A DNA stretch of 64,000 nt from Oscillospiraceae bacterium (GCA_021202155.1 JAJQDP010000019.1:51084-115083); one strand, 5' to 3'; counted from the stretch's first letter, positions 4,667-16,198 are shown. Notes: a model not told the origin generated them from the letters alone. Translations and numbers: made by a program.

Positions 4667-4691
4667 AGCCCGATTAATTTCGGGCTTTTTC
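4667..4691 (+). terminator. rho-independent terminator
   Basis: agcccga-ttaatt-tcgggct is followed by ttttt. Confidence 0.8.
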
Positions 4692-4705
4692 GATGCTAAA
4701 TTATA

Positions 4706-4746
4706 ACTTGCACGTTTGGAAAGTTTACTTGCACGATCGGAAAGTT
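4706..4746 (+). repeat. two tandem 20-nt direct repeats (ACTTGCACGnnnGGAAAGTT), 21-nt period, abutting a promoter
   Basis: acttgcacgtttggaaagtt (4706-4725) and acttgcacgatcggaaagtt (4727-4746) match at 17 of 20 positions. A third partial copy (acttgaca) overlaps the -35 box. Confidence 0.7.
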
Positions 4747-4752
4747 CTAAAC

Positions 4753-4781
4753 TTGACAAAAAGTGTGAAATGTGATATAAT
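4753..4781 (+). promoter_or_regulatory. sigma-A-type promoter of the XRE/TPR regulator gene
   Basis: TTGACA, a 17-nt spacer and TATAAT, with an extended -10 TG (tgTGaTATAAT). Confidence 0.65.
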
Positions 4782-4816
4782 AACTTTGTGCTTTAATCGA
4801 TTGGGGAGGTGGAGTT

Positions 4817-5728
4817 ATGGATAAAAAGACAATAGGAAAGATCATCAGCACACAGCGCGCCAAGAAAGGAATGTCGCTGACCGAACTGAGTAGTGGAATT
4901 TGCAACAAGTCCACACTTATGAGAATAGAAGCCGGAGAAGTGAATACCAGCACAGATACTCTATCCGGTCTTCTCGAAAGGCTCGGAATTCACGTGGATT
5001 TTGATGAAGCCAGCAATTTTGACGACATTCTCGTAAGGCAGATAATAAGGAGTGCAAATCAAGCTGACGTAACTGGCAACCGTACTGAGGCTCTTGAGCT
5101 TCTTAACACAATCGCTTCTGATTACGACAGCTTTTCATTGCAAAACAAACAGAGGTACGATGTCATAAACATCATGTTGCTTCATGAGGATAGAAAAATA
5201 ACCGATCAAACCAGACTCCATTACCTTGAGAAATCGATGAGATTGACACAGCCTAAATATAGTCTTGAAAATCTGCCACTTGTTATGACCGATATGGAAG
5301 CGCAGATACTTAGGTATATAGCGGCAACATATGGCATTATGGGAAATTATGATACTGCAATAGTAATCTACTATCATCTAAGAAACTACATTAAGCAAGA
5401 TGTAGACAAAATAGATTCTTCCAAAAAATTAGTGAATGTCTGCTATAATCTCTCTAAATGCCTTGGTCAGTCTGGCAGATACTCTGAAGGCGTAGAAATT
5501 GCAAAAGAAGGTATTGATGCGTGTCGGTTTACAAACAACGTATATATGCTTCCGCTATGTATGTACAATTATGCTTGGTCTCTTGCTTATAGGGATGAAG
5601 CCGGTGATTGGGACGAAGCAAGAAAATTAATGACTGAAATTTCAGCTTACTGTACCCCTATGACGAGAGATATTGATGCGCTAAAGAAGAACATTCGTGA
5701 GTTGAAAATAAAACTCGGCATTCAATAA
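4817..5728 (+). CDS. XRE-family HTH transcriptional regulator with a C-terminal TPR-like helical repeat domain (RNPP-like architecture)
   Basis: GGAGGTGGAG RBS. The N-terminal HTH is GKIISTQRAKKGMSLTELSSGICNKSTLMRIEAGE. About 230 aa of helical repeats follow (YNLSKCLGQSGRYSEGVEIAKEGI..., YNYAWSLAY). Codon usage is AT-rich. Confidence 0.8.
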   Translation: MDKKTIGKIISTQRAKKGMSLTELSSGICNKSTLMRIEAGEVNTSTDTLSGLLERLGIHVDFDEASNFDDILVRQIIRSANQADVTGNRTEALELLNTIASDYDSFSLQNKQRYDVINIMLLHEDRKITDQTRLHYLEKSMRLTQPKYSLENLPLVMTDMEAQILRYIAATYGIMGNYDTAIVIYYHLRNYIKQDVDKIDSSKKLVNVCYNLSKCLGQSGRYSEGVEIAKEGIDACRFTNNVYMLPLCMYNYAWSLAYRDEAGDWDEARKLMTEISAYCTPMTRDIDALKKNIRELKIKLGIQ

Positions 5729-5928
5729 TCTTCATCCATAATGTCTTCTATCGGAAGGTCACAATTCGGCGAACATTCCGGTTCTTTCTCCTCATCCTTG
5801 CGCTCGGTAATTTCCGTATTGTTTTCTGGTGGCAATTCCGGAGTGACGGTGATTTCGGTTGCGACCATTGATGCTGTCATAACGAGTGCCAATAGAATTG
5901 CTAAAATACTGTTTAATGCTTTTTTCAT
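5722..5928 (-). CDS. 68-aa secreted acidic pre-peptide, candidate signalling-peptide precursor
   Basis: AAAGAGG RBS 8 nt upstream. Sec-type signal MKKALNSILAILLALVMTASMVA. The mature part is acidic and Pro-rich, ending CSPNCDLPIEDIMDEDY. It has its own promoter. The 3' end overlaps the regulator's stop by 7 nt. Confidence 0.6.
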   Translation of the reverse strand: MKKALNSILAILLALVMTASMVATEITVTPELPPENNTEITERKDEEKEPECSPNCDLPIEDIMDEDY

Positions 5929-5981
5929 GAGAATAACCTCTTTCGATATAGTATTTCGTGCCTCTAAACACGATCATATTT

Positions 5982-6010
5982 ACTATATCATATTGGAGCA
6001 AATTTGTCCA
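5982..6010 (-). promoter_or_regulatory. promoter of the 68-aa pre-peptide gene
   Basis: On the minus strand: TGGACA, a 17-nt spacer and TATAGT, about 50 nt upstream of the RBS. Confidence 0.5.
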
Positions 6011-6020
6011 CCTTTTGACC

Positions 6021-6037
6021 GTTGCACGCCATGCAAC
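6021..6037. promoter_or_regulatory. perfect palindrome GTTGCA-N5-TGCAAC, candidate operator between divergent promoters
   Basis: Read directly from the sequence. It is nested inside an outer 7-bp inverted repeat, ccttttg (6011-6017) and caaaagg (6050-6056). Confidence 0.45.
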
Positions 6038-6168
6038 GCTCTCGGTTGACAAAAGGTAAAAAATTTGCTACCCTGTTCTTACAGCCACTTGTCGAGACAT
6101 TCTGCTATCGGCGCGCAATTAGCGGGATGGGTCGCGGGGCTGAAAAAATCTTATTAGGAGGTATTATC

Positions 6169-6486
6169 ATGAAAAAGGTAATATCAATAATGTTAGCAGT
6201 TGTTTTGGCTTTGAGCGTTATGTGTTCGTTCTCGTTTGCGGCTGAGGTGCCGGAAGAGGAAAGCGACGATTTGATGGTATCTGTGACCCTTTGCGAAAAT
6301 TGTTTCTCGTCTAATGTTACTATTATTGACTATCAGAGAGAAGTTTGGGATCGTACTGAAATCGTCGTTAATTCTGACCTCACAGCCACAGTATATCAGG
6401 TTTACAAGCTTTACAGAGACCTTTATTGTAATGATTGTGGAAAGTATTTTTCGCTGTATCTTGGTGAAAAGTATGTAGAGGATTGA
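6169..6486 (+). CDS. small secreted protein with CxxC...CxxC motifs (hypothetical)
   Basis: An internal ATG of the track ORF is preceded by TTAGGAGG. Signal peptide MKKVISIMLAVVLALSVMCSFSFA. The mature part has LCENCF and YCNDCGKYF. Confidence 0.65.
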   Translation: MKKVISIMLAVVLALSVMCSFSFAAEVPEEESDDLMVSVTLCENCFSSNVTIIDYQREVWDRTEIVVNSDLTATVYQVYKLYRDLYCNDCGKYFSLYLGEKYVED

Positions 6487-6497
6487 GCGAATAGTAG

Positions 6498-6590
6498 CCC
6501 TTGCAATGCGAGGGAAATTGAGTTTATAATGTCGTACTTAAGGAGAAATAAAATATGAATAAGAATATAATTTCCCTCGCGTTGCAAGGG
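6498..6590 (+). promoter_or_regulatory. 22-bp inverted repeat (one mismatch) bracketing the RBS and start codon of the first FtsX permease gene
   Basis: Arm 1 is cccttgcaatgcgagggaaatt (6498-6519). Arm 2 is aatttccctcgcgttgcaaggg (6569-6590, inside codons 5-12). The 49-nt loop holds AAGGAG and the ATG at 6555. Confidence 0.6.
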
Positions 6591-9092
6591 TTGCTTCGCA
6601 AGAAACATCAGACACTTCTCATAGTCGCTATACTAACCATCTCCTTCGCGTTTGCAGTAATGATGATTAGTTACACCAGCAGTATTGCCGCGACGAATGC
6701 TGAATATCGCTCTGAGGTCTATGGCACTTGGTACGGCGCGATTCCGATTGGATATGAGGGCGACGTAGATTTCTTGGAGAGTACAGACGGTGTTGATGAA
6801 GTGGGTCTCTCCACATCTTACGGAGCAGTCAGGACAAGCAGTTCGAGCTACAGTATAGGAACTATTGATGAGAACTTTGCATCGATGGGTCCGTATCTTC
6901 TTGAAGGTCGGCTTCCCGAGACGAGCGGGGAGATAGCCATGGAAGCAAATCTTTTGTCTGCACTCGGCTGTGACTATACATTGGGGCAGGAAATAACCAT
7001 GTATGTCTATTTTGATTATGAGATAGATGGGTTCACATACTATGCTCCGGTTCAGTGCACATTCACCCTTACCGGAGTAATCAACAGCTATACTAATATA
7101 TGGGGATTAACTAATATCGACTTAAACAGTGCTGTAATTGTTTCCGAAGATGCTGAGGCTCTCATGGCTGATGCAACGGAAAAGGCTGATGCAGAGATGA
7201 ACGGTTCGGTTGCTTCCTACTTCTTTACGACATCATCTGATGCAGACATTGATGCCGTCAAAACCGCAGTCAACGCCTATCTGAAATCAACTCGTGATGT
7301 GACAACAGAGCAAAGTATAACGGTGAACTCCTCAATATCCGCGACCGAAGCGGAAGCTGACTACAACACCGTTTATGTCATGCTGATATTTGTAGTAGCT
7401 ATCATTGCCGTCGTCGTAATCTACATACTACAGATGCAGTCGGAAGTAAGAAGAATCGTTCGCATTCGCAGTCTCGGCGGAACCAAGGGGCAAGTAAGGC
7501 TTCTCATTGCAACTGAAACTCTCATGCTGACTATCCCGTCACTGATAATAGGCACACTTTTCGGTGCGTTCGGAATCTGGCTTCTTCTGAAATTAAGTGT
7601 ATTCTCCGGCTCAGTCAGCGTTGTAGTAAGCATACCTGTGCAGGTGCTTCTTATAGCGGCTCTTGCCTGGATTTTTGGGATTTTCTTCGTAAGGTTCGTG
7701 ACGATTCAGGTTGCACTTTCAACTCCTTTGACAGGCACAATGGGAATGCAGGTCGGGAAGAGGCGGTTCTATGCCAGATTTCAGAAGGCACTCATACTTC
7801 TTATGTCAACAGTATTCTGTGGGACAGTGATATTTACAGCTTTTGTTTTGCAGACCCCAACCAAGGTTTATTCGTATTTCAAAGAATCACGTGACTATAC
7901 TATCGGGTATAGCACGCCTAAGTCATTAAACAAAAATAGCAAGGTGACAGACATTACAACCGACAATGTAATAGACATTGCATCTGTTCCGGGAATAGAT
8001 TATGTGAGGGCTTTTTCAGACCTGGAGGCAGATTTGGCTATAGACGGTGAAAGTCAGGGGTCTGTAGCTCTGCTCGTGATAGATTCGTCGCAGGACTGGG
8101 CAGAGATGTTTGATATGTCAGATGTAGACCTTGAAGCGTTTGAAAACGGCGAGCAAATTCTGATTGTAACAAATGAGAACTTTCAGGTTATAGTCGACGG
8201 GGAGAAGGTTACAACTGACTTTGACTTACAGCTTGAAGCCGGGGATATAGTTTCGCTCTCAGCTATGACAGACGTGGTCACCACGGATGATGAGGGAAAT
8301 AACATCACTCAAACAGTGACAGCGTCAACAGTTGACGTTGAAATCGCAAAAATAACTTCCGCTCTGTCAAGCAATATGTTTGAATTTGTAACCAGTGCGA
8401 TTTATGAACCCTATGTCATTGTTTGCTCTCGTGCAACCGTTCAAAGACTTGTAGACCTGCTTCCGGAAGATATGAGCTGGAATTACTCTCTGTCGTCTTT
8501 ATTAAGATATGAGGCGGGCGACACAGTCGGCTTCAGAAGGCTCTATGCCTATGCAAACGAGACCGCCGGGTACATATCCACCGATAAGACGTTGGCAACT
8601 CTTGTGAAGATAGCCGGACTTGAAATCTGGCAGAACGAAAGGGAATACAACTCCTCAATAATGCAAAGCTACCTCCAGCAGATTATCATGTACAGTGTGA
8701 GCGGAGTTTGTATAGCGTTCGTAGTGATTATTATACTTTCAAGTACCATACGACTTGAAACCCAGCGGGAGAAGAAGCGGTATGGAATCCTGCAAGCACT
8801 CGGCATGTCCCGCAGACAGAGAAATCTCAGACTGATGGGAACTGCATTTGCGCGGTCAGTCATATCTGTTGCCCTTGGCTGGGGAGCATACAGGCTCTAT
8901 GATTTTATCATTAACTTAGGAACTGAAACAGCGGAGGGCACTACCGTTCTTGTGACCAAATCATATATGTCCGGAGCAACTCCAGTTATTCTGACTGCAA
9001 TACTGTTCGCAGTAGTCTTCGGAATCAGTTATGTTTCAAAGCTTGGGCTGAATAAGTATACTCTGATGGAAATGCTCCGCGAGGACAGATAA
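6555..9092 (+). CDS. ABC-transporter-type permease with two FtsX domains and two large extracytoplasmic domains (MacB/YbbP-like)
   Basis: The N-terminus LALQGLLRKKHQTL plus a TM segment is followed by an extracytoplasmic domain with GRLPETSGEIAMEANLLSALG. There are two FtsX-type TM bundles (IRSLGGTKGQVRLLIATE and GILQALGMSRRQRNLRL). Confidence 0.85.
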   Translation: MNKNIISLALQGLLRKKHQTLLIVAILTISFAFAVMMISYTSSIAATNAEYRSEVYGTWYGAIPIGYEGDVDFLESTDGVDEVGLSTSYGAVRTSSSSYSIGTIDENFASMGPYLLEGRLPETSGEIAMEANLLSALGCDYTLGQEITMYVYFDYEIDGFTYYAPVQCTFTLTGVINSYTNIWGLTNIDLNSAVIVSEDAEALMADATEKADAEMNGSVASYFFTTSSDADIDAVKTAVNAYLKSTRDVTTEQSITVNSSISATEAEADYNTVYVMLIFVVAIIAVVVIYILQMQSEVRRIVRIRSLGGTKGQVRLLIATETLMLTIPSLIIGTLFGAFGIWLLLKLSVFSGSVSVVVSIPVQVLLIAALAWIFGIFFVRFVTIQVALSTPLTGTMGMQVGKRRFYARFQKALILLMSTVFCGTVIFTAFVLQTPTKVYSYFKESRDYTIGYSTPKSLNKNSKVTDITTDNVIDIASVPGIDYVRAFSDLEADLAIDGESQGSVALLVIDSSQDWAEMFDMSDVDLEAFENGEQILIVTNENFQVIVDGEKVTTDFDLQLEAGDIVSLSAMTDVVTTDDEGNNITQTVTASTVDVEIAKITSALSSNMFEFVTSAIYEPYVIVCSRATVQRLVDLLPEDMSWNYSLSSLLRYEAGDTVGFRRLYAYANETAGYISTDKTLATLVKIAGLEIWQNEREYNSSIMQSYLQQIIMYSVSGVCIAFVVIIILSSTIRLETQREKKRYGILQALGMSRRQRNLRLMGTAFARSVISVALGWGAYRLYDFIINLGTETAEGTTVLVTKSYMSGATPVILTAILFAVVFGISYVSKLGLNKYTLMEMLREDR

Positions 9093-9116
9093 GTTTTTGC
9101 AATTCGTGAAAATTCC

Positions 9117-9145
9117 TTGACAAGAAAGCAAAAATATGGTATAAT
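9117..9145 (+). promoter_or_regulatory. sigma-A-type promoter of the second FtsX permease gene
   Basis: TTGACA, a 17-nt spacer and TATAAT, a perfect consensus. Confidence 0.65.
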
Positions 9146-9189
9146 CTTATTATTCTTTAATCAATTGGAATGAAAGGTGAGATAGGACC

Positions 9190-11643
9190 ATGTTCAAAAC
9201 AATATTCGGTCTTGCATTTCAAGGTTTATGGAGAAGGCGGAAGCAGACGCTTGTTATAGTTTCTGTCCTGACAATATCGCTCCTTGTAGCTGTATTGGTT
9301 ATAAGCTATTCCGGCAGTATAACCGCCACGAATGAAGCCTATCGCTACACTATCTATGGCAGTTGGTACGGCTCTATTCCCTCCACTCAAGATGGCGATT
9401 ACGAATTTCTCTCTTCTCAGGACTGGCTCGATTCCCTCGGGACGAGTACAAACTACGGAACGGTTTCAGACTATGGAATCGGAACCGTTGACGAGAATCT
9501 TGCCGATATGGGCATAACTCTGCTTGATGGCAGACTTCCCGAATCGAGTGGCGAAATAGCTGTTGAGGAAGCACTTCTGAGTGCCTTGGGTTATGACCCT
9601 GTCGTCGGGCAGACAATTTCAATGAACGTGGTATTACATCGGGATGAAATCAAAGGGAACAATATAAGCATTGTCAAAACGTTCACGGTAACCGGCATCA
9701 TCTCCAACTATTCAAATCTCTGGCTAACTTCAACGCTATGCACACTGAACAGTGCAATTATAACGGAGGAGGATGCCCAGTCTCTATATGCTCAAGCCGA
9801 GCAATTCGCCTCCCGGAGAAATATTTCATTGTCGAACCCGTCGGTCTCTTACTATTTCACTGTCAAGGACGGCTGTGAGGACATAATGAAGGAAAGCGTG
9901 AACGCCTATCTTCGGGAAACAAGAAACAGTACCTTAGCCAGCGAAAATTCAGTTCTGACAAACACTCTGGCATATTCTCATAATGCCTCTGAAGCCAGCT
10001 ATAATTCTTTCTATATTGCACTCATATTTGCTGTTTCATTGCTTGCAGTCATCGTAATATATACACTCCAGTTTCAGCCGGAAGTTCAGAGGATTGTGAG
10101 GTTCAGAAGCTTAGGCGCAACAAAAGGACAAGTAAGGACACTTATCTTCACTGAAACAATGCTTTGTTGCGTCCCATCGCTGGTTCTCGGAACGGCTTTG
10201 GGAGCCATAGGAATAGTGATTCTTCTCAAACTCAGCGTATACACAGGTTCGGTTTCAATAGTCGTGAACATTCCGTGGTCAGCTCTATTGCCTGCAGTTT
10301 TCGTGTGGATATTGGGTATTTTAGCAATCAGAGCTGTAACAATTCAAATAGCCCTTGCAACTCCACTCACAGGCAAAATGGGCATGACCGCCAAGAGGAG
10401 ACGGCTTTCACAGAGGTTTCAAAAAATTCTTATCTTCGCAATGTCTGCGTCACTCTGCATTGCCGTTCTGTTCACATCTCTTAATTCCCTTTCAGCAATA
10501 TATTATTATAATACATGGAACAATAATTATGATTATTCGATTAAGGATATGTCGCTCAATAATGAAGGAATTTCGGACAGCGATATTGAAACTCTGAGCT
10601 CTGTTTTCGGCATTGACGATATTTTGGGCAAGACTATATTATACGCAAATGTATCCACCGAAACAGGCGACAACATTTCTGCAACGCTGTACGTAATAGA
10701 CGGCACTGCCGACTGGTCGCATGCATTTAACTTTTCCAAAGTAGATGTTGAGGACTTTGAAGATGGCAACAGCGTCATAGTCACGTTTGCTTCAAAGAGT
10801 GATGAAAACGTCGCCGGATTGAGTGATAAGGTAACTGTGAGCTATCAGAATATATCTGTGAGCGCGAATATTGCTTCCACTCAGATAACAGACATAATGG
10901 ACTATCTTGATTACGGAATGCCAGCCGTTTACTCCGGCGGATGTGGAATTGTCTGCTCAAGAGCATTTCTTCAGAAGATGGTGGATTCTCTTTCTGAAAA
11001 CGCCACCATCAGTACGTCGCAAAATTCCTATAAATCAGGCGATGAAGTGTTGAACTTTGAGAGTGCAGTCGGCTTCGCTAGTAGCAGTACCGCCGACGCT
11101 TCGACCGATAAGACGTTGATTTCAAAAGCTTCAAAGCTTGCATTGAGCGTTGTTGATAACAATCGTGCCGCCAATGATTCCCGCGCTCAAGACTATCTCC
11201 AGACGATAATTATGCTCTATGTCAGCGGAATCTGCATATCTGTCATAGTCCTCATCATCCTATTCAGCACCATCAAGCTCGAAACTCAGCGTGAAAAGAA
11301 GAGATACGGCATCCTTCAGGCGTTGGGTATGTCCCGCAGGCAGCGGAACCGTGAGCTCTTGCGGACGGCGTTTGTGAGGTCTGTCGTGGCGGTGGCGGTC
11401 GGTTGGGGAGCATACCTCGGGTCGGTTATAATCAGAAATCTTGACTCAATCAGAGAAGAAGGCGCAACGGTTCTGAGCGTCCTTTCAAGCTACATGAGCG
11501 ACCTCACCACCCGGTTCATACCATCATGGGCGATGATTCTTATGACAGCGGCGATGTTCGTGGCTGTGCTTCTGATATGCTACGTTTCAAAGTTAGGGCT
11601 CAACAAGTACAGCCTTATGGAAATGCTTCGCGAGGACAGATAA
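9190..11643 (+). CDS. paralogous double-FtsX ABC-type permease
   Basis: Same architecture as 6555..9092 with shared motifs (GRLPESSGEIAVEEALLSALG, FRSLGATKGQVRTLIFTE, KKRYGILQALGMSRRQRN). The C-termini are near-identical: KLGLNKYSLMEMLREDR here and KLGLNKYTLMEMLREDR in the first gene. Confidence 0.85.
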   Translation: MFKTIFGLAFQGLWRRRKQTLVIVSVLTISLLVAVLVISYSGSITATNEAYRYTIYGSWYGSIPSTQDGDYEFLSSQDWLDSLGTSTNYGTVSDYGIGTVDENLADMGITLLDGRLPESSGEIAVEEALLSALGYDPVVGQTISMNVVLHRDEIKGNNISIVKTFTVTGIISNYSNLWLTSTLCTLNSAIITEEDAQSLYAQAEQFASRRNISLSNPSVSYYFTVKDGCEDIMKESVNAYLRETRNSTLASENSVLTNTLAYSHNASEASYNSFYIALIFAVSLLAVIVIYTLQFQPEVQRIVRFRSLGATKGQVRTLIFTETMLCCVPSLVLGTALGAIGIVILLKLSVYTGSVSIVVNIPWSALLPAVFVWILGILAIRAVTIQIALATPLTGKMGMTAKRRRLSQRFQKILIFAMSASLCIAVLFTSLNSLSAIYYYNTWNNNYDYSIKDMSLNNEGISDSDIETLSSVFGIDDILGKTILYANVSTETGDNISATLYVIDGTADWSHAFNFSKVDVEDFEDGNSVIVTFASKSDENVAGLSDKVTVSYQNISVSANIASTQITDIMDYLDYGMPAVYSGGCGIVCSRAFLQKMVDSLSENATISTSQNSYKSGDEVLNFESAVGFASSSTADASTDKTLISKASKLALSVVDNNRAANDSRAQDYLQTIIMLYVSGICISVIVLIILFSTIKLETQREKKRYGILQALGMSRRQRNRELLRTAFVRSVVAVAVGWGAYLGSVIIRNLDSIREEGATVLSVLSSYMSDLTTRFIPSWAMILMTAAMFVAVLLICYVSKLGLNKYSLMEMLREDR

Positions 11644-11646
11644 TAT

Positions 11647-11680
11647 AAAAAATCCCGCCCACAACAGGACGGGATTAATT
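11647..11680. terminator. bidirectional terminator hairpin between convergent genes
   Basis: aatcccg-N12-cgggatt flanked by A/T runs. Confidence 0.55.
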
Positions 11681-13096: not shown

Positions 13097-13312
13097 GTGG
13101 TTGGAAGGGCTTATAAAGTCTATACCACAAATTTCATTGCGGGGGGGTACTACCTCCGGTGGGTGAATTTTTCAGGGAATTTCTTCCTGAAAGGTGAGCC
13201 CAAAGGTGCGATGTACCCATACCAAACCTCCGACACTATTATTAAAATGTGCATCGGAGGATTCCTTATATCTATATTTTCCTCCTTTGCAAAATCTAAG
13301 GAGGAATTTTTT
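13097..13312 (+). promoter_or_regulatory. ~215-nt structured 5' leader with an SD-sequestering hairpin (unclassified riboswitch or attenuator candidate)
   Basis: Three mutually exclusive helices are visible: cctccga/tcggagg (13227-33 with 13254-60), ggagga/tcctcc (13256-61 with 13280-85), and ttcctcctt/aaggaggaa (13279-87 with 13298-306). The last one buries the SD. Confidence 0.45.
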
Positions 13313-15427
13313 ATGGCAAAAAGGCTTTTGTGCGTTGTCCTGAGCCTGCTCATGATAATGGCAGTTTTGCCGACGGGGGTCATTGCCGAAGCCGATGTGG
13401 GTGAGGCAAACTCAGTAGATGAAGGTATCTCTCTTACTGCCGATGAAACAACTTATGTTGCAACGATTACGGATACAGGTGTATCTTATGAAACTCTTTC
13501 ATCTGCAATATCAGCCGCAGAATCTGGTCAGACTGTTAAATTGTTAACTGATGTAACCGGTACTATAACGATAGCAAGTGATGACGATATAATCCTCGAC
13601 CTTGCAGGTTGTACTTTGACTGTGTCAACTGCAGGAAAAGTAATTACGGTTAATGGAAAACTTACTTTGGAAGATAGTAGTTCCGATGGGTCTGGAAAAA
13701 TTACAAATGGAAGCACATATGGTGCTGTGTATGTCTATTCTGCCGCTACTTTTATTATGAATGGAGGAACAATAACTGATAGTTCTTCTGGCTATGGAGT
13801 TTACGTTGGTGGAACTAGCACATTTACTATGAATGGTGGCATAATTTCCGGGTGTAGAGTCGGTGTATATGTAAGGGGAACATCAGATACTAATAGAGCT
13901 ACTTTTATTATGTATGGTGGTTCTATAACAGATAACAAAAATTCAACTTCTACTAGTGGCTCGGCATCTGGTGTATACTTGACTAATGCCAATTTTACGA
14001 TGAATGCTGGAAGTATTTCAAATAATACTATCAGTAAAACTTCAGGAGGCGGAGTCAGTGTCACTACTAATGCCACATTTACTATGAATGGCGGCACTAT
14101 TTCAAATAATATTGCGCAAAATGGAGCTGGCGTCTTTCTTAGTGCATCCGGTAGTGTGTTTAATATGAATGGCGGCTCTATTACCGGAAATGAGGCTTCT
14201 AAAACAAGTTCATCCCGTTATGGCGGCGGTGTTTATCTTAAACTTGGAGAATTTACAATGACTGGTGGCGCAATCTATGGCAATGCCGCATCTGATGCTG
14301 GTGCAGATATTTATGTTGTTAATGGTAAGACTGCAACTTTAATAGTCGCAGATTCAATGGTTGCTGAAGGAAAGAGTTTCACAGGCTACAAATGGTACAC
14401 AGATGCATCTGGCAGCAGGTATAGCGAATCAAACGCCAATGTGTACTCAGTTACGTCTGGAACTGCAATAGACACATCATCTGTAGTTGCTCTGATTGCC
14501 GCGAAACCTACGGAAGAGGTTATTCCCACCCTTTACAGCCGCTCTTTGAGCCTCGGCACTAAGATTAGCATTAATTATAATTTCGACTTTACTGGAGTAG
14601 ATGATCAGTCAAGTTACACTGTCAAGTATTCAGTAGGTGATAGTACTACAACTTATGATGCTGAATGCTGGGGTACTAAGGAGAGTGGAGACACTACATA
14701 CTATGTTGCAACATGTAATGTGTACTTCTATCAGATGGCACAGAATATTACACTATATCTCTGTGATTCAAATGGTAATACTGTTGCCCAATATAGCGGT
14801 GGTTCAATCAGGTCGTACTATGATGCTGTAGCTAAAAATTCTGGCAGTTATTCTGCTACACTGATTAATCTTCTTAAAGCTATGCTGAATTATGGCGGCT
14901 ATGGTCAGGCTTACGTCGAAGCAGCAAGCCTTGTTGCAGACACAGGAGCATTAGCAAACAGCAGTATCGAGGATAGCTATATTTCTGGTACTGATTATAT
15001 TGATTCCAAGTATGCTCCTGATGTTGATAGTTCCAGTACAGCTAGTTTAAGTGGTCTACTTGTTATTAGTTCTACCGAGTCATGCAAGATCAAGTTCACC
15101 ATAAAATCATTTCCGACTGATGTTAGTGTCAGCGATATTGCCGTGACAATCGACGGAGTGGACGCTACAATAACGACTGCAGATGATGGCACTTCTTATG
15201 TAGTTAGTGATGAGATACTTGTCCAGAATTGGGATGAGCCGGTTACAATCAAAATTACAGCCAAGGATGATAGCAGTACTGTTTACTATTCTGCAGACTA
15301 TAGCGTATTGAGTTATGCATATTTGGTTCTACATGGCGATAACTCTTCAACCTATTCAGATGAACTTAAAAATCTTGTCTGGGCTATGTACAATTACAAT
15401 GCAGCCGCAGATGCTTATAATGGTTAA
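13313..15427 (+). CDS. secreted parallel beta-helix repeat protein (pectate-lyase-fold-like), function unknown
   Basis: AAGGAGGA RBS at an internal ATG. Signal peptide MAKRLLCVVLSLLMIMAVLPTGVIAEA. At least 7 repeats of the type ATFTMNGGTISNN..GGGV(Y/S)V. Confidence 0.8.
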   Translation: MAKRLLCVVLSLLMIMAVLPTGVIAEADVGEANSVDEGISLTADETTYVATITDTGVSYETLSSAISAAESGQTVKLLTDVTGTITIASDDDIILDLAGCTLTVSTAGKVITVNGKLTLEDSSSDGSGKITNGSTYGAVYVYSAATFIMNGGTITDSSSGYGVYVGGTSTFTMNGGIISGCRVGVYVRGTSDTNRATFIMYGGSITDNKNSTSTSGSASGVYLTNANFTMNAGSISNNTISKTSGGGVSVTTNATFTMNGGTISNNIAQNGAGVFLSASGSVFNMNGGSITGNEASKTSSSRYGGGVYLKLGEFTMTGGAIYGNAASDAGADIYVVNGKTATLIVADSMVAEGKSFTGYKWYTDASGSRYSESNANVYSVTSGTAIDTSSVVALIAAKPTEEVIPTLYSRSLSLGTKISINYNFDFTGVDDQSSYTVKYSVGDSTTTYDAECWGTKESGDTTYYVATCNVYFYQMAQNITLYLCDSNGNTVAQYSGGSIRSYYDAVAKNSGSYSATLINLLKAMLNYGGYGQAYVEAASLVADTGALANSSIEDSYISGTDYIDSKYAPDVDSSSTASLSGLLVISSTESCKIKFTIKSFPTDVSVSDIAVTIDGVDATITTADDGTSYVVSDEILVQNWDEPVTIKITAKDDSSTVYYSADYSVLSYAYLVLHGDNSSTYSDELKNLVWAMYNYNAAADAYNG

Positions 15428-15447
15428 TCATGAAAGGAGTTTTTGAA

Positions 15448-15582
15448 ATGAAAACTTATGAAGAACATGAAATGGCAGTAATCTCTTTTTCGACAGGCAG
15501 TGTTTTCAATGACGTCGTTGCATCTCAAATCGAATTACCAGATGTAGGTTTTGGAAGCAAAAAGGAGTATAGCGATTCATAA
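15448..15582 (+). CDS. 44-codon ORF (hypothetical small protein, below the ORF-track cutoff)
   Basis: AAAGGAG lies 7 nt upstream of the ATG. Translation is MKTYEEHEMAVISFSTGSVFNDVVASQIELPDVGFGSKKEYSDS. A terminator follows directly. Confidence 0.4.
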   Translation: MKTYEEHEMAVISFSTGSVFNDVVASQIELPDVGFGSKKEYSDS

Positions 15583-15589
15583 TCCCATC

Positions 15590-15619
15590 CCGGGCGGGCA
15601 GAGGCTCGCCCGGACTTTT
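15590..15619 (+). terminator. rho-independent terminator
   Basis: ccgggcg-loop-cgcccgg followed by acttttat. Confidence 0.65.
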
Positions 15620-15634
15620 ATAGGGGGGTATAGC

Positions 15635-16198
15635 ATGAAAATTAAAAATATATTGACAATATTAGCTTGCCTTGTCCTGCTCAGCGGCTGTTCCAACGTC
15701 GCTGACGCAGAAGTTACGGAGGCGAGTACAACAACCGCCGAGGTAACGACGGTCGCTGAGGTTACAACTGCTCCGGTTACCACAACCAAGGAGGTCACGA
15801 CCACCGCGGCGGCGACCACGGAGGCTACTACTGTGGAGACGACTACGGTCGCTACTACAACCACAGAGGCGACTACTACGACTCCGGCTACAACAAAGGC
15901 AACTACAGCAACTACCAAGGCAACCACAAAGGCTACCACTGCGGCGACAACTACTACCGCGGAAGAGGACGAAGTGGTTTTGGACGAGTCGGATGAGGAC
16001 GAGGTGGTGCTGGACGAGGAGGAAGCGGCGGTTACTACTGCGAGTGCGGCTTCTTCGAGCGTCACGACGACTACATACTATTACTACTATCCGACGGTCA
16101 CGACAACATCGACTACAAGTGGTTCAGGAAGCGGGAGCTCATCCACGTCTCAGAACTCGGACGGAAGCTACGAGTTGCCGGCAATTCCTATTACATAA
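15635..16198 (+). CDS. lipoprotein with a Thr-rich mucin-like low-complexity region and acidic DE(D/S)DEVVLDE repeats
   Basis: Internal ATG. Lipobox LLSGC. About 90 aa are T/A/E/V repeats (TTAEVTTVAEVTT...KATTATTKATTKATT). DEDEVVLDE occurs twice. Confidence 0.7.
   Translation: MKIKNILTILACLVLLSGCSNVADAEVTEASTTTAEVTTVAEVTTAPVTTTKEVTTTAAATTEATTVETTTVATTTTEATTTTPATTKATTATTKATTKATTAATTTTAEEDEVVLDESDEDEVVLDEEEAAVTTASAASSSVTTTTYYYYYPTVTTTSTTSGSGSGSSSTSQNSDGSYELPAIPIT

Follow-up and report, generated by a model that had tools for sequence, protein, structure and literature searches.

A probable pheromone-controlled type VII ABC permease module without its own ATPase gene in an Oscillospiraceae genome

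Background

What drives a pair of large FtsX-type permeases when no ATPase is encoded beside them? This question is raised by a block of five genes at positions 4704-11643 of a 64,000-nucleotide (nt) stretch of DNA from an Oscillospiraceae bacterium (GCA_021202155.1, JAJQDP010000019.1:51084-115083). The whole stretch is called the window here, and coordinates refer to it at its full length unless a related locus, labelled by an L-number, is named. The block encodes a regulator (REG), a short pre-peptide (P68), a small secreted protein (P105) and two permeases (PERM1 and PERM2), and the list of open reading frames (ORFs) has all five where a first-pass annotation, made from the sequence alone, had placed them. 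That annotation took the block for a self-contained envelope module that manages without an ATPase. Our analysis leads to another answer: the locus is very probably a variant of known machinery and not a motor-less system. The explanation that we favour, with moderate confidence, is a module of the type VII class of ATP-binding cassette (ABC) transporters under the control of an RRNPP pheromone circuit, which has lost its own ATPase gene and uses a pooled ATPase in trans.

Results and discussion

Two fused permeases of a known class

PERM1 (6555-9092, plus strand, 845 amino acids, aa) and PERM2 (9190-11643, plus strand, 817 aa) are paralogues of 46% identity. Both had been credited with two FtsX and two MacB-type extracytoplasmic domains. 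The FtsX part rests on Pfam, which recognises two such stretches in each (E 1e-14 and 3e-17) and whose FtsX model matches 20/20 permease family members tested; the MacB part holds at the level of the fold but not of the Pfam family, as MacB_PCD matched none of the window proteins and only 2/20 family members. A profile of the permease family found no match among PDB sequences. The AlphaFold model of PERM1 (predicted local distance difference test, pLDDT, 74) has eight transmembrane (TM) helices and extracytoplasmic domains at residues ~57-258 and 444-695. Its best structure match is E. coli YbbP (9ge6_A, E 4e-18, full length), followed in this order by LolE, BceB, MacB, LolC, a non-canonical ABC transporter of S. 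pneumoniae (5xu1), YtrF and HrtB, and the isolated extracytoplasmic domains of LolE, YknZ and MacB are matched as well. On this model the permeases are predicted to be single-chain, eight-TM pseudo-heterodimers of the type VII (MacB/LolCE/YbbP-like) ABC class.

Comparison with the characterised members of this class shows what is shared and what is not. The permease of YbbAP-TesA likewise combines two FtsX halves and two MacB-like extracytoplasmic domains in one chain. YbbP acts in a 2:1:1 complex with a separate small ATPase dimer and a small secreted partner, and has, as does BceB, 10 TM helices (PMC12646458). The ten helices of YbbP include a linking TM pair, whereas the PERM1 model has eight; sequence identity is ~11%, ybbA adjoins ybbP while the ATPase gene is absent from the present locus, and P105 is unrelated to TesA. 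Each half of the present permeases matches LolE, LolC and MacB, and the mechanotransmission design, with a coupling helix after TM2, is the same as in LolCDE and MacB; here, however, the halves are fused, many paralogues occur per genome, and the host is a monoderm without outer membrane, adaptor or lipoprotein carrier. BceAB-BceRS is likewise a type VII transporter system of Firmicutes with a variable extracytoplasmic domain, the ATPase of the present family is close to BceA, and alternative copies of the family stand under an extracytoplasmic function (ECF) sigma factor, which amounts to a control of the envelope-stress type. BceB, in contrast, has 10 TM helices and a single extracytoplasmic domain, against eight and two in the PERM1 model, and it signals by way of an adjoining histidine kinase and response regulator. 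Neither of these two is encoded at the locus or at related loci according to the ORF list and the neighbourhood mapping, just as had been stated. The layout does differ from BceAB/BceRS, as had also been claimed, yet it corresponds to the usual type VII ABC layout with one gene missing.

Duplicated FtsX permeases of ~800 aa, with many paralogues per genome and commonly without an adjoining ATPase, also make up the 'Acidobacterial duplicated orphan permease' (ADOP) family, for which, to our knowledge, neither a pheromone circuit nor a conserved pooled ATPase has been described. Its model TIGR03434 is the only NCBIfam match of PERM1, at 23.3 bits against a cut-off of 622.3, so that PERM1 is not a member, and the phylum differs. 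Relatives of PERM1 are few: only 72 were found in 5.8 billion proteins, and all those with a named source come from Oscillospiraceae, Ruminococcus or Acutalibacter metagenome-assembled genomes (MAGs). A tblastn search with PERM1 against plasmids gave no match.

A frozen ATPase and variable permeases

No ABC ATPase was found in the 64-kb window, either by motif scan or by tblastn with the ATPase of the permease family (best E 0.32), and the earlier observation that none is encoded nearby is borne out. A MalK-type ATPase is encoded ~6 kb upstream of REG (L058:2884-3948), just beyond the start of the window; it serves the sugar importer whose genes for permease and binding protein stand first in the window, and has no relation to the type VII ATPase.

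A scan of species-representative genomes gave 55 loci, mostly from nine closely related MAGs, on which REG, P68, P105, permeases and ATPases were mapped. Permease genes stand singly or in arrays, with up to four of them ahead of an ATPase gene (L005, L014) and at least five without one (L002, L003). Directly downstream of 29 arrays, including every other REG-linked module, lies the gene of a 222-aa ATPase whose best PDB matches are LolD and the MacB nucleotide-binding domain (E 1e-50 to 1e-53) and BceA; ~25 untruncated arrays have no such gene. In L056 the PERM1 orthologue (73%) stands behind REG (65%), P68 and a P105-like gene, with the ATPase gene next, and in L014 the PERM2 orthologue (87% at the protein level) comes second in an array that ends with the ATPase gene. 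The reading as a self-contained, ATPase-less module gives way here, as the outcome named beforehand as its refutation has come about: all other REG-linked copies, that with the PERM1 orthologue in L056 among them, end with the 222-aa ATPase, and the loops by which a permease couples to its motor are kept in the window.

ATPase copies from 16 loci in nine MAGs (for example L009:12513-13181) are 96-99% identical as proteins; the adjoining permeases are only 37-47% identical. When the L056 copy (L056:7765-8433) was included as well, 18 loci from ten genomes gave 153 pairs, with a mean proportion of synonymous differences (pS) of 0.53 and of nonsynonymous differences (pN) of 0.02, and copies within one genome display the same pattern of high pS and low pN. 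Gene conversion was rejected as the cause of the ATPase identity because synonymous divergence is high. By these values the copies are old duplicates under extreme purifying selection. Among the permeases, conservation is highest in the two cytoplasmic coupling loops (residues 292-326 and 729-765) and in the C-terminal tail, and lowest in the second extracytoplasmic domain. The coupling loops are equally intact in ATPase-linked and in orphan permeases, PERM1 and PERM2 included, and both window genes have intact ORFs with a ratio of nonsynonymous to synonymous substitution rates (dN/dS) of ~0.1. Some 6-11 permease genes but 1-3 ATPase genes were retrieved per genome, counts that are lower bounds. 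The simplest reading of a frozen ATPase together with conserved coupling loops is that one pooled motor serves many permeases, and that ATPase-less arrays are powered in trans.

The genome of the window very likely contains such a motor. The window proteins are numbered MCD8006234-MCD8006239 (locus tags near LUF29_04580), and MCD8005768/9 and MCD8005926/7 are further permeases of the same MAG. A full-length member of the ATPase cluster, MCD8006730.1, is encoded on a 184,881-bp contig and carries a number inside the accession block of the window's MAG, which points with high probability to a 222-aa ATPase encoded elsewhere in this genome.

The regulator and its candidate peptide

The usual module of the family comprises REG, a convergent P68, a palindrome with an activator-type promoter, a small CxxC...CxxC protein, one or more permeases and the 222-aa ATPase. 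It is complete, as REG-P68-P105-permease-ATPase, in L013, L016, L019 and L056, and variants occur in L024, L036, L011, L012, L022 and L023. An arrangement of REG, a convergent signal-peptide ORF, the palindrome and the activator-type promoter, followed by a small secreted Cys protein and permease(s), recurs in 11 other loci from at least nine genomes, which sustains the earlier view of the five genes as one conserved, peptide-controlled module.

REG (4817-5728, plus strand, 303 aa) had been described as an XRE-type regulator with a helix-turn-helix (HTH) and TPR repeats, a description with which our results agree: the Pfam model HTH_3 matches above the Pfam cut-off (E 6.6e-6), and the AlphaFold2 model has an RRNPP fold. 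Several TPR matches stay below threshold, as does RNPP_C (E 0.0017; 18.3 vs 26.5 bits), which is recorded for 6/13 listed REG-family proteins, REG included. The best PDB sequence match is PlcR (residues 4-71). When the model (pLDDT 89.8) was compared with known structures by Foldseek, the top matches were PlcR-PapR-DNA (E 2e-8), PlcR, Rgg2 and ComR, along the whole length (~300 columns). REG is thus modelled as a PlcR/Rgg/ComR-like protein with an N-terminal XRE-type HTH and a C-terminal TPR-like superhelix. Its family is tiny, with 13 relatives among the 5.8 billion proteins searched.

The candidate pheromone precursor is P68 (5722-5928, minus strand, 68 aa), the convergent Sec-signal pre-peptide gene that had been reported; it overlaps the REG stop by 7 nt and is kept in relatives. 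The product has a Sec-type signal peptide and an acidic C-terminus with the motif NCDLPIEDIMDEDY. A convergent, overlapping ORF of 68-79 aa with a signal peptide was found at 11/12 REG loci; in L011, L012, L022 and L023 phmmer missed it, yet a convergent signal-peptide ORF of 79 aa is present. Depending on the locus, its C-terminal motif takes the form NCD[LQM]P[IV] or YDESW, and this form tracks REG similarity. The length is 68 residues in 5/6 aligned loci and 72 in L036, and the gene calls of two independent assemblies include P68. Comparison of the window with L056, L013, L019 and L016 gave dN/dS values of 0.3-0.6 for P68, at a synonymous divergence (dS) of 0.3-0.7 that is unusually low against REG and PERM1 (1.5-2.8). 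This hints at an extra constraint at the nucleotide level (antisense or an overlapping signal) or at a recent exchange of the control region. Over 48 nt, the 5' coding end of P68 (5888-5935) is 73% reverse-complementary to that of P105 (6162-6209); the two signal peptides are therefore homologous and stand as mirror images around the operator.

XRE HTH and TPR-like superhelix are shared with the PlcR-PapR, Rgg-SHP and ComR-ComS systems, and two further traits of the PlcR-PapR type recur here, an adjoining small ORF for a Sec-exported pro-peptide and a palindromic box immediately upstream of the -35 of the neighbouring target operon. The convergent, overlapping position of the peptide gene resembles the group III Rgg/SHP loci, which Fleuchot et al. 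reportedly described in 2011. On the other hand, REG is only ~15-20% identical to the solved RRNPP members, the pro-peptide is long (68-79 aa) and very acidic, and the output is a type VII ABC module.

The divergent control region

The three cis elements noticed at first reading, namely direct repeats, a palindrome and an inverted repeat, all lie where they had been reported, and they differ in what became of them. The palindrome GTTGCA-N5-TGCAAC (GTTGCAcgccaTGCAAC, 6021-6037), whose single exact match in the window lies between two divergent promoters, is the candidate REG operator. On its one side is the P68 promoter (5982-6010, minus strand; TGGACA-17-TATAGT, TG-extended), and 8 nt downstream begins the -35 of the P105/permease promoter (6046-6074, plus strand), which has a perfect TTGACA, a 17-nt spacer and a poor, conserved -10, TACCCT. 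At the REG loci the same order is conserved, with the P68 promoter, one or two palindromes, and a perfect -35 with a 17-nt spacer and a poor -10. All REG loci have palindromes of the TTGCA-N5-TGCAA type, or variants of it, 7-9 nt upstream of the perfect -35. Their position is conserved and their sequence varies with the REG paralogue, the variants being GTTGCG...CGCAAC (L013/L019), GTGAGT...ACTCAC (L016) and TTTTCA...TGAAAA (L036). By analogy with PlcR and Rgg systems, the divergent region reads as an activator-dependent promoter with a paralogue-specific operator. Tandem duplication of the operator was observed in L024, L011, L012 and L023.

The -10 TACCCT and the leader of ~95 nt that follows are kept in five P105-type loci (the window, L013, L016, L019 and L056). 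For this leader (6075-6168, plus strand) a hairpin is predicted; support for a structured RNA was weak, with a consensus fold of -21.8 kcal/mol and just three covarying pairs from only five close sequences. A search of the block against Rfam gave no match.

The direct repeats are two 20-nt copies (ACTTGCACGnTnGGAAAGTT) at 4706-4725 and 4727-4746 (plus strand), 21 nt apart and 90% identical (chance expectation 0.04 matches). They abut the -35 of the REG promoter (4753-4781, plus strand), a consensus sigma-70 promoter, TTGACA-17-TATAAT with TG. Copy 2 is kept in L013, L016, L019 and L056, and copy 1 lies exactly at the insertion junction discussed below. PERM2 has a consensus sigma-70 promoter of its own (9117-9145, plus strand; TTGACA-17-TATAAT, TG).

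The inverted repeat forms a long RNA hairpin of ~30 bp (6487-6602, plus strand; arms 6493-6519 and 6569-6595) with a predicted fold of -57.6 kcal/mol (z = -9.9), which encloses the ribosome-binding site and the start codon of PERM1; one of its arms has the reverse-complement sequence of the conserved 5' coding end of the permease genes. As a conserved regulatory element, in the form of the 22-bp inverted repeat reported earlier, it was rejected, because it is absent from all paralogous and orthologous loci. We regard the hairpin as specific to this locus; it may have been left behind by recombination and may now dampen the expression of PERM1.

The secreted cysteine protein and what it might do

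P105 (6169-6486, plus strand, 105 aa) is the divergently promoted, secreted CxxC...CxxC protein that had been announced: it has a Sec-type signal peptide and the four cysteines of CENC...CNDC, stands behind the divergent promoter at 6046-6074, and is acidic with a net charge of -11. The signal peptide is conserved across loci and the mature part is hypervariable with the CxxC...CxxC pattern kept; mature parts are 34-35% identical between loci at which REG shares 65% and PERM1 73%. An exhaustive search of 1.84 billion representatives with mature P105 returned only P105 itself and one repeat protein (P0118, matched by window positions 6247-6483), which is secreted, has 1465 aa and contains 13 tandem copies of the P105 Cys-rich module; a word-indexed protein search added nothing to these two. 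The repeat module belongs to no Pfam or NCBIfam family, and NCBIfam and Pfam searches with P105 homologues and the repeat protein gave only signal-peptide or zinc-finger-like noise. In L012 (6302-6820) and L023 (1344-1856) the first ORF behind the REG-controlled promoter encodes a secreted mini-protein of 63 aa, MKKGIKKIF...CENCG...CDYCGHDWYA, which looks like a minimal version of the P105 type. P105 may possibly be a polymorphic bacteriocin-like effector or a docking partner of the extracytoplasmic domains, neither of which is well supported.

According to the first possibility, P105 would be a Sec-dependent toxin, stabilised by disulfides or zinc and made at high cell density, which permeases and ATPase expel from the membrane of the producing cell, similarly to LanFEG or the lactococcin 972 transporter, and the orphan permease arrays would be an immunity repertoire against the variants of neighbours. 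The conserved signal peptide before a hypervariable mature part fits this idea, as do the hypervariable extracytoplasmic domains of the permeases, the quorum-sensing control that the RRNPP fold suggests, the carriage on mobilisable elements (see below), the existence of a copy of the same transporter under an ECF sigma factor, and the many orphan permeases. Against it, P105-type proteins are acidic, and bacteriocin models (lactococcin 972, BLB8/JUQZ-1 and others) matched P105 only below threshold and at the level of the signal peptide; PADLOC defence models likewise gave nothing relevant. Moreover, 13 tandem Cys modules in a 1465-aa protein suggest a structural or binding domain and not a toxin, and near-identical permeases occur without P105: in L010 (8692-13075) and L055 (8695-13112) a permease 98% identical to that of L013 stands, with its ATPase, behind an ECF sigma factor instead of REG, and a membrane protein that may be the anti-sigma factor is encoded ahead of the permease. 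We regard this explanation as possible, though distinctly less probable than the one that we favour.

The second possibility, that P105 docks on the permease domains and is moved or activated through ATP hydrolysis, as are the partners in FtsEX-EnvC/PcsB and YbbAP-TesA, seems to us rather unlikely. It would agree with the secreted partner of YbbP (PMC12646458), the closest structure match of PERM1, and with the position of the P105 gene, which where present is always the ORF directly before a permease. However, P105 is absent from most arrays, and in L024 (7056-7375) a deletion has removed all of the gene but its last ~25 nt, which stand with the conserved leader before the permease. There is also no one-to-one pairing of P105 types with permease types, as the L010/L055 permeases without P105 illustrate.

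Mosaic origin of the block

The block is compositionally distinct and AT-rich, as had been seen at first glance: its GC content of 43.6% is the minimum among all 7-kb windows of the 64 kb (mean 47.6%, standard deviation 1.4). The flanks are housekeeping genes, upstream a sugar ABC importer, a beta-lactamase-superfamily (Lactamase_B_2) protein, SurE and QueH, and downstream the convergent gene (minus strand) of a GH27 alpha-galactosidase. On the left, the terminator hairpin of queH (4667-4686, plus strand) marks the edge of the island as had been proposed, and synteny with L045 and L025 stops at 4703. On the right, the hairpin of the supposed bidirectional terminator is present and shared (11651-11676), but only the minus-strand GH27 gene has a good T-tract; the plus strand continues with just TAATTAT.

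The flanks of the window recur in two loci of sister genomes, L045 and L025, with 83-99% identity at the protein level. There the interval from queH to GH27 (9900-12601 in L045) contains a single orphan permease, of 883 or 876 aa, and REG, P68 and P105 are absent. Homology to these loci at the DNA level breaks off at 4703 and sets in again at 11575-11614, among the conserved final codons in the last 30-70 nt of PERM2. Within the island, the segment 4727-6277 resembles L013, L019 and L056 (74-82% at the nucleotide level), 6539-9093 resembles L056 and L001 (73%), and 9190-11640 resembles the second permease of the L014 array (84% nt, 87% aa). These similarities and break points indicate a mosaic that arose by cassette exchange in a variable queH-GH27 slot, for which the conserved ends of permease genes are plausible recombination handles. 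An assembly chimera was rejected as the source of the junction: a separate assembly (Logan SRR15221317) has the identical order queH-REG-P68-P105-PERM1, and the shared 3' sequence is short and only ~80% identical.

Elsewhere the module lies beside mobilisation genes (L013, 205-483; L019, 4402-16186; L056, 1964-9858), namely those of a Mob_Pre relaxase, a D5-like primase-helicase, a CHC2 primase and one or two large serine recombinases. In these three loci the canonical module is cargo of mobilisable elements.

Past the GH27 gene, the window encodes a secreted protein of 738 aa with FTMNGG-type repeats and no Pfam match (13211-15427), which is 50% identical in L025 and absent in L045, followed by a Thr-rich low-complexity ORF (15635-16198). 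The region 13211-16198 looks like a second variable surface-protein slot.

Recombination of this kind could also have damaged the module. If the event in the queH-GH27 slot took out the ATPase gene, the block might be a non-functional, decaying remnant, and some features suit that: it is the sole REG-P68-P105 module without ATPase, it is a mosaic with a junction inside the 3' end of PERM2, it has the unusual 30-bp hairpin over the PERM1 start, and split or frameshifted family members occur elsewhere (L007, L026, L029, L046 and the P105 gene of L013). Yet all five ORFs are full length, REG and PERM2 retain consensus promoters, an independent assembly has the same arrangement, and within each genome of the clade arrays with and without an ATPase are equally common, so that the lack of an ATPase in cis is a normal state of the family. 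We therefore consider a remnant improbable.

Weighing the explanations

It is least likely of all, and in our view very improbable, that the double-FtsX permeases work self-contained without any ABC ATPase, for instance as passive receptors or sensors for secreted proteins: the ATPase-free 64 kb, the ~25 other arrays of the clade without adjoining ATPase and the intact ORFs under purifying selection would allow it, but coupling loops and C-terminal tail are the most conserved parts and indistinguishable from those of ATPase-linked paralogues, the orthologues of PERM1 (L056) and PERM2 (L014, L005) sit in ATPase-terminated operons, and the extreme conservation of the ATPase protein fits one motor for many permeases.

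The explanation that we favour, a pheromone-controlled type VII module that draws on a pooled ATPase, has to face several points as well. The assignment of MCD8006730.1 to this genome rests on accession numbering. As the only REG-linked module without ATPase, the window locus could be a recent, partly disabled derivative, and a 30-bp helix over the PERM1 start, which would be a substrate of the RNase III type, may lower PERM1 expression. P105 raises further difficulties: proteins of its type are acidic (net -3 to -11), unlike typical cationic bacteriocins, it is dispensable in some loci (L024, L036, L010, L055), and sequence and family-model searches gave no characterised relative of its mature domain.

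With these points in mind, the module may be pictured as follows. P68 would leave the cell by way of Sec and be cut down to a peptide that derives from the acidic C-terminal part; this peptide would be re-imported and bound by the TPR-like domain of REG. REG would then bind the palindrome at 6021-6037 and activate both divergent promoters, on the P68 side as auto-induction. The weak -10 promoter would drive P105 and PERM1 with read-through into PERM2, which would also be transcribed from its own consensus promoter. Each permease, a fused pseudo-heterodimer equivalent to LolC and LolE in one chain, would dock a dimer of the 222-aa LolD/MacB-type ATPase encoded elsewhere in the genome, and ATP hydrolysis would move the two variable extracytoplasmic domains by mechanotransmission, the work being done on a target at the outer face of the membrane. 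The module itself, a mosaic, was assembled by cassette exchange in the variable queH-GH27 slot. As to its role, our guess is density-dependent competition or envelope defence, with the permeases conferring resistance or immunity and P105 acting as a co-secreted polymorphic factor.

More speculatively, the family as a whole may form a polymorphic, cassette-shuffled surface system, with 6-11 or more hypervariable type VII permeases per genome, a pooled ATPase, private RRNPP circuits and secreted Cys-knuckle proteins, in which the orphan permeases are an immunity or recognition repertoire for competition between strains in the gut. This idea is tentative, and we know of no toxin/immunity or recognition system built on MacB-type machinery; if it were true, P105-type proteins would be the matching effectors or ligands for the orphan-permease repertoire.

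Conclusions

Literature searches on RRNPP regulators with FtsX, on orphan duplicated permeases and on type VII paralogue families did not bring up a description of this arrangement. In the literature searched we found no precedent for an RRNPP circuit paired with type VII permeases, for the family of small secreted Cys-module proteins, or for a frozen ATPase that contrasts with hypervariable, cassette-shuffled permeases. The locus joins an RRNPP circuit, a type VII ABC machine and a new Cys-rich secreted family in uncultured gut Oscillospiraceae, and its operator, promoter and candidate peptide are defined and testable in a heterologous host. For annotation it means that an orphan FtsX permease is not necessarily motor-less. 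A near-invariant ATPase across old gene copies is the pattern expected of a motor that has to fit many divergent permeases. Further orphan permeases of the duplicated kind, ADOP and the many FtsX proteins of ~800 aa in gut bacteria among them, may be explained likewise.

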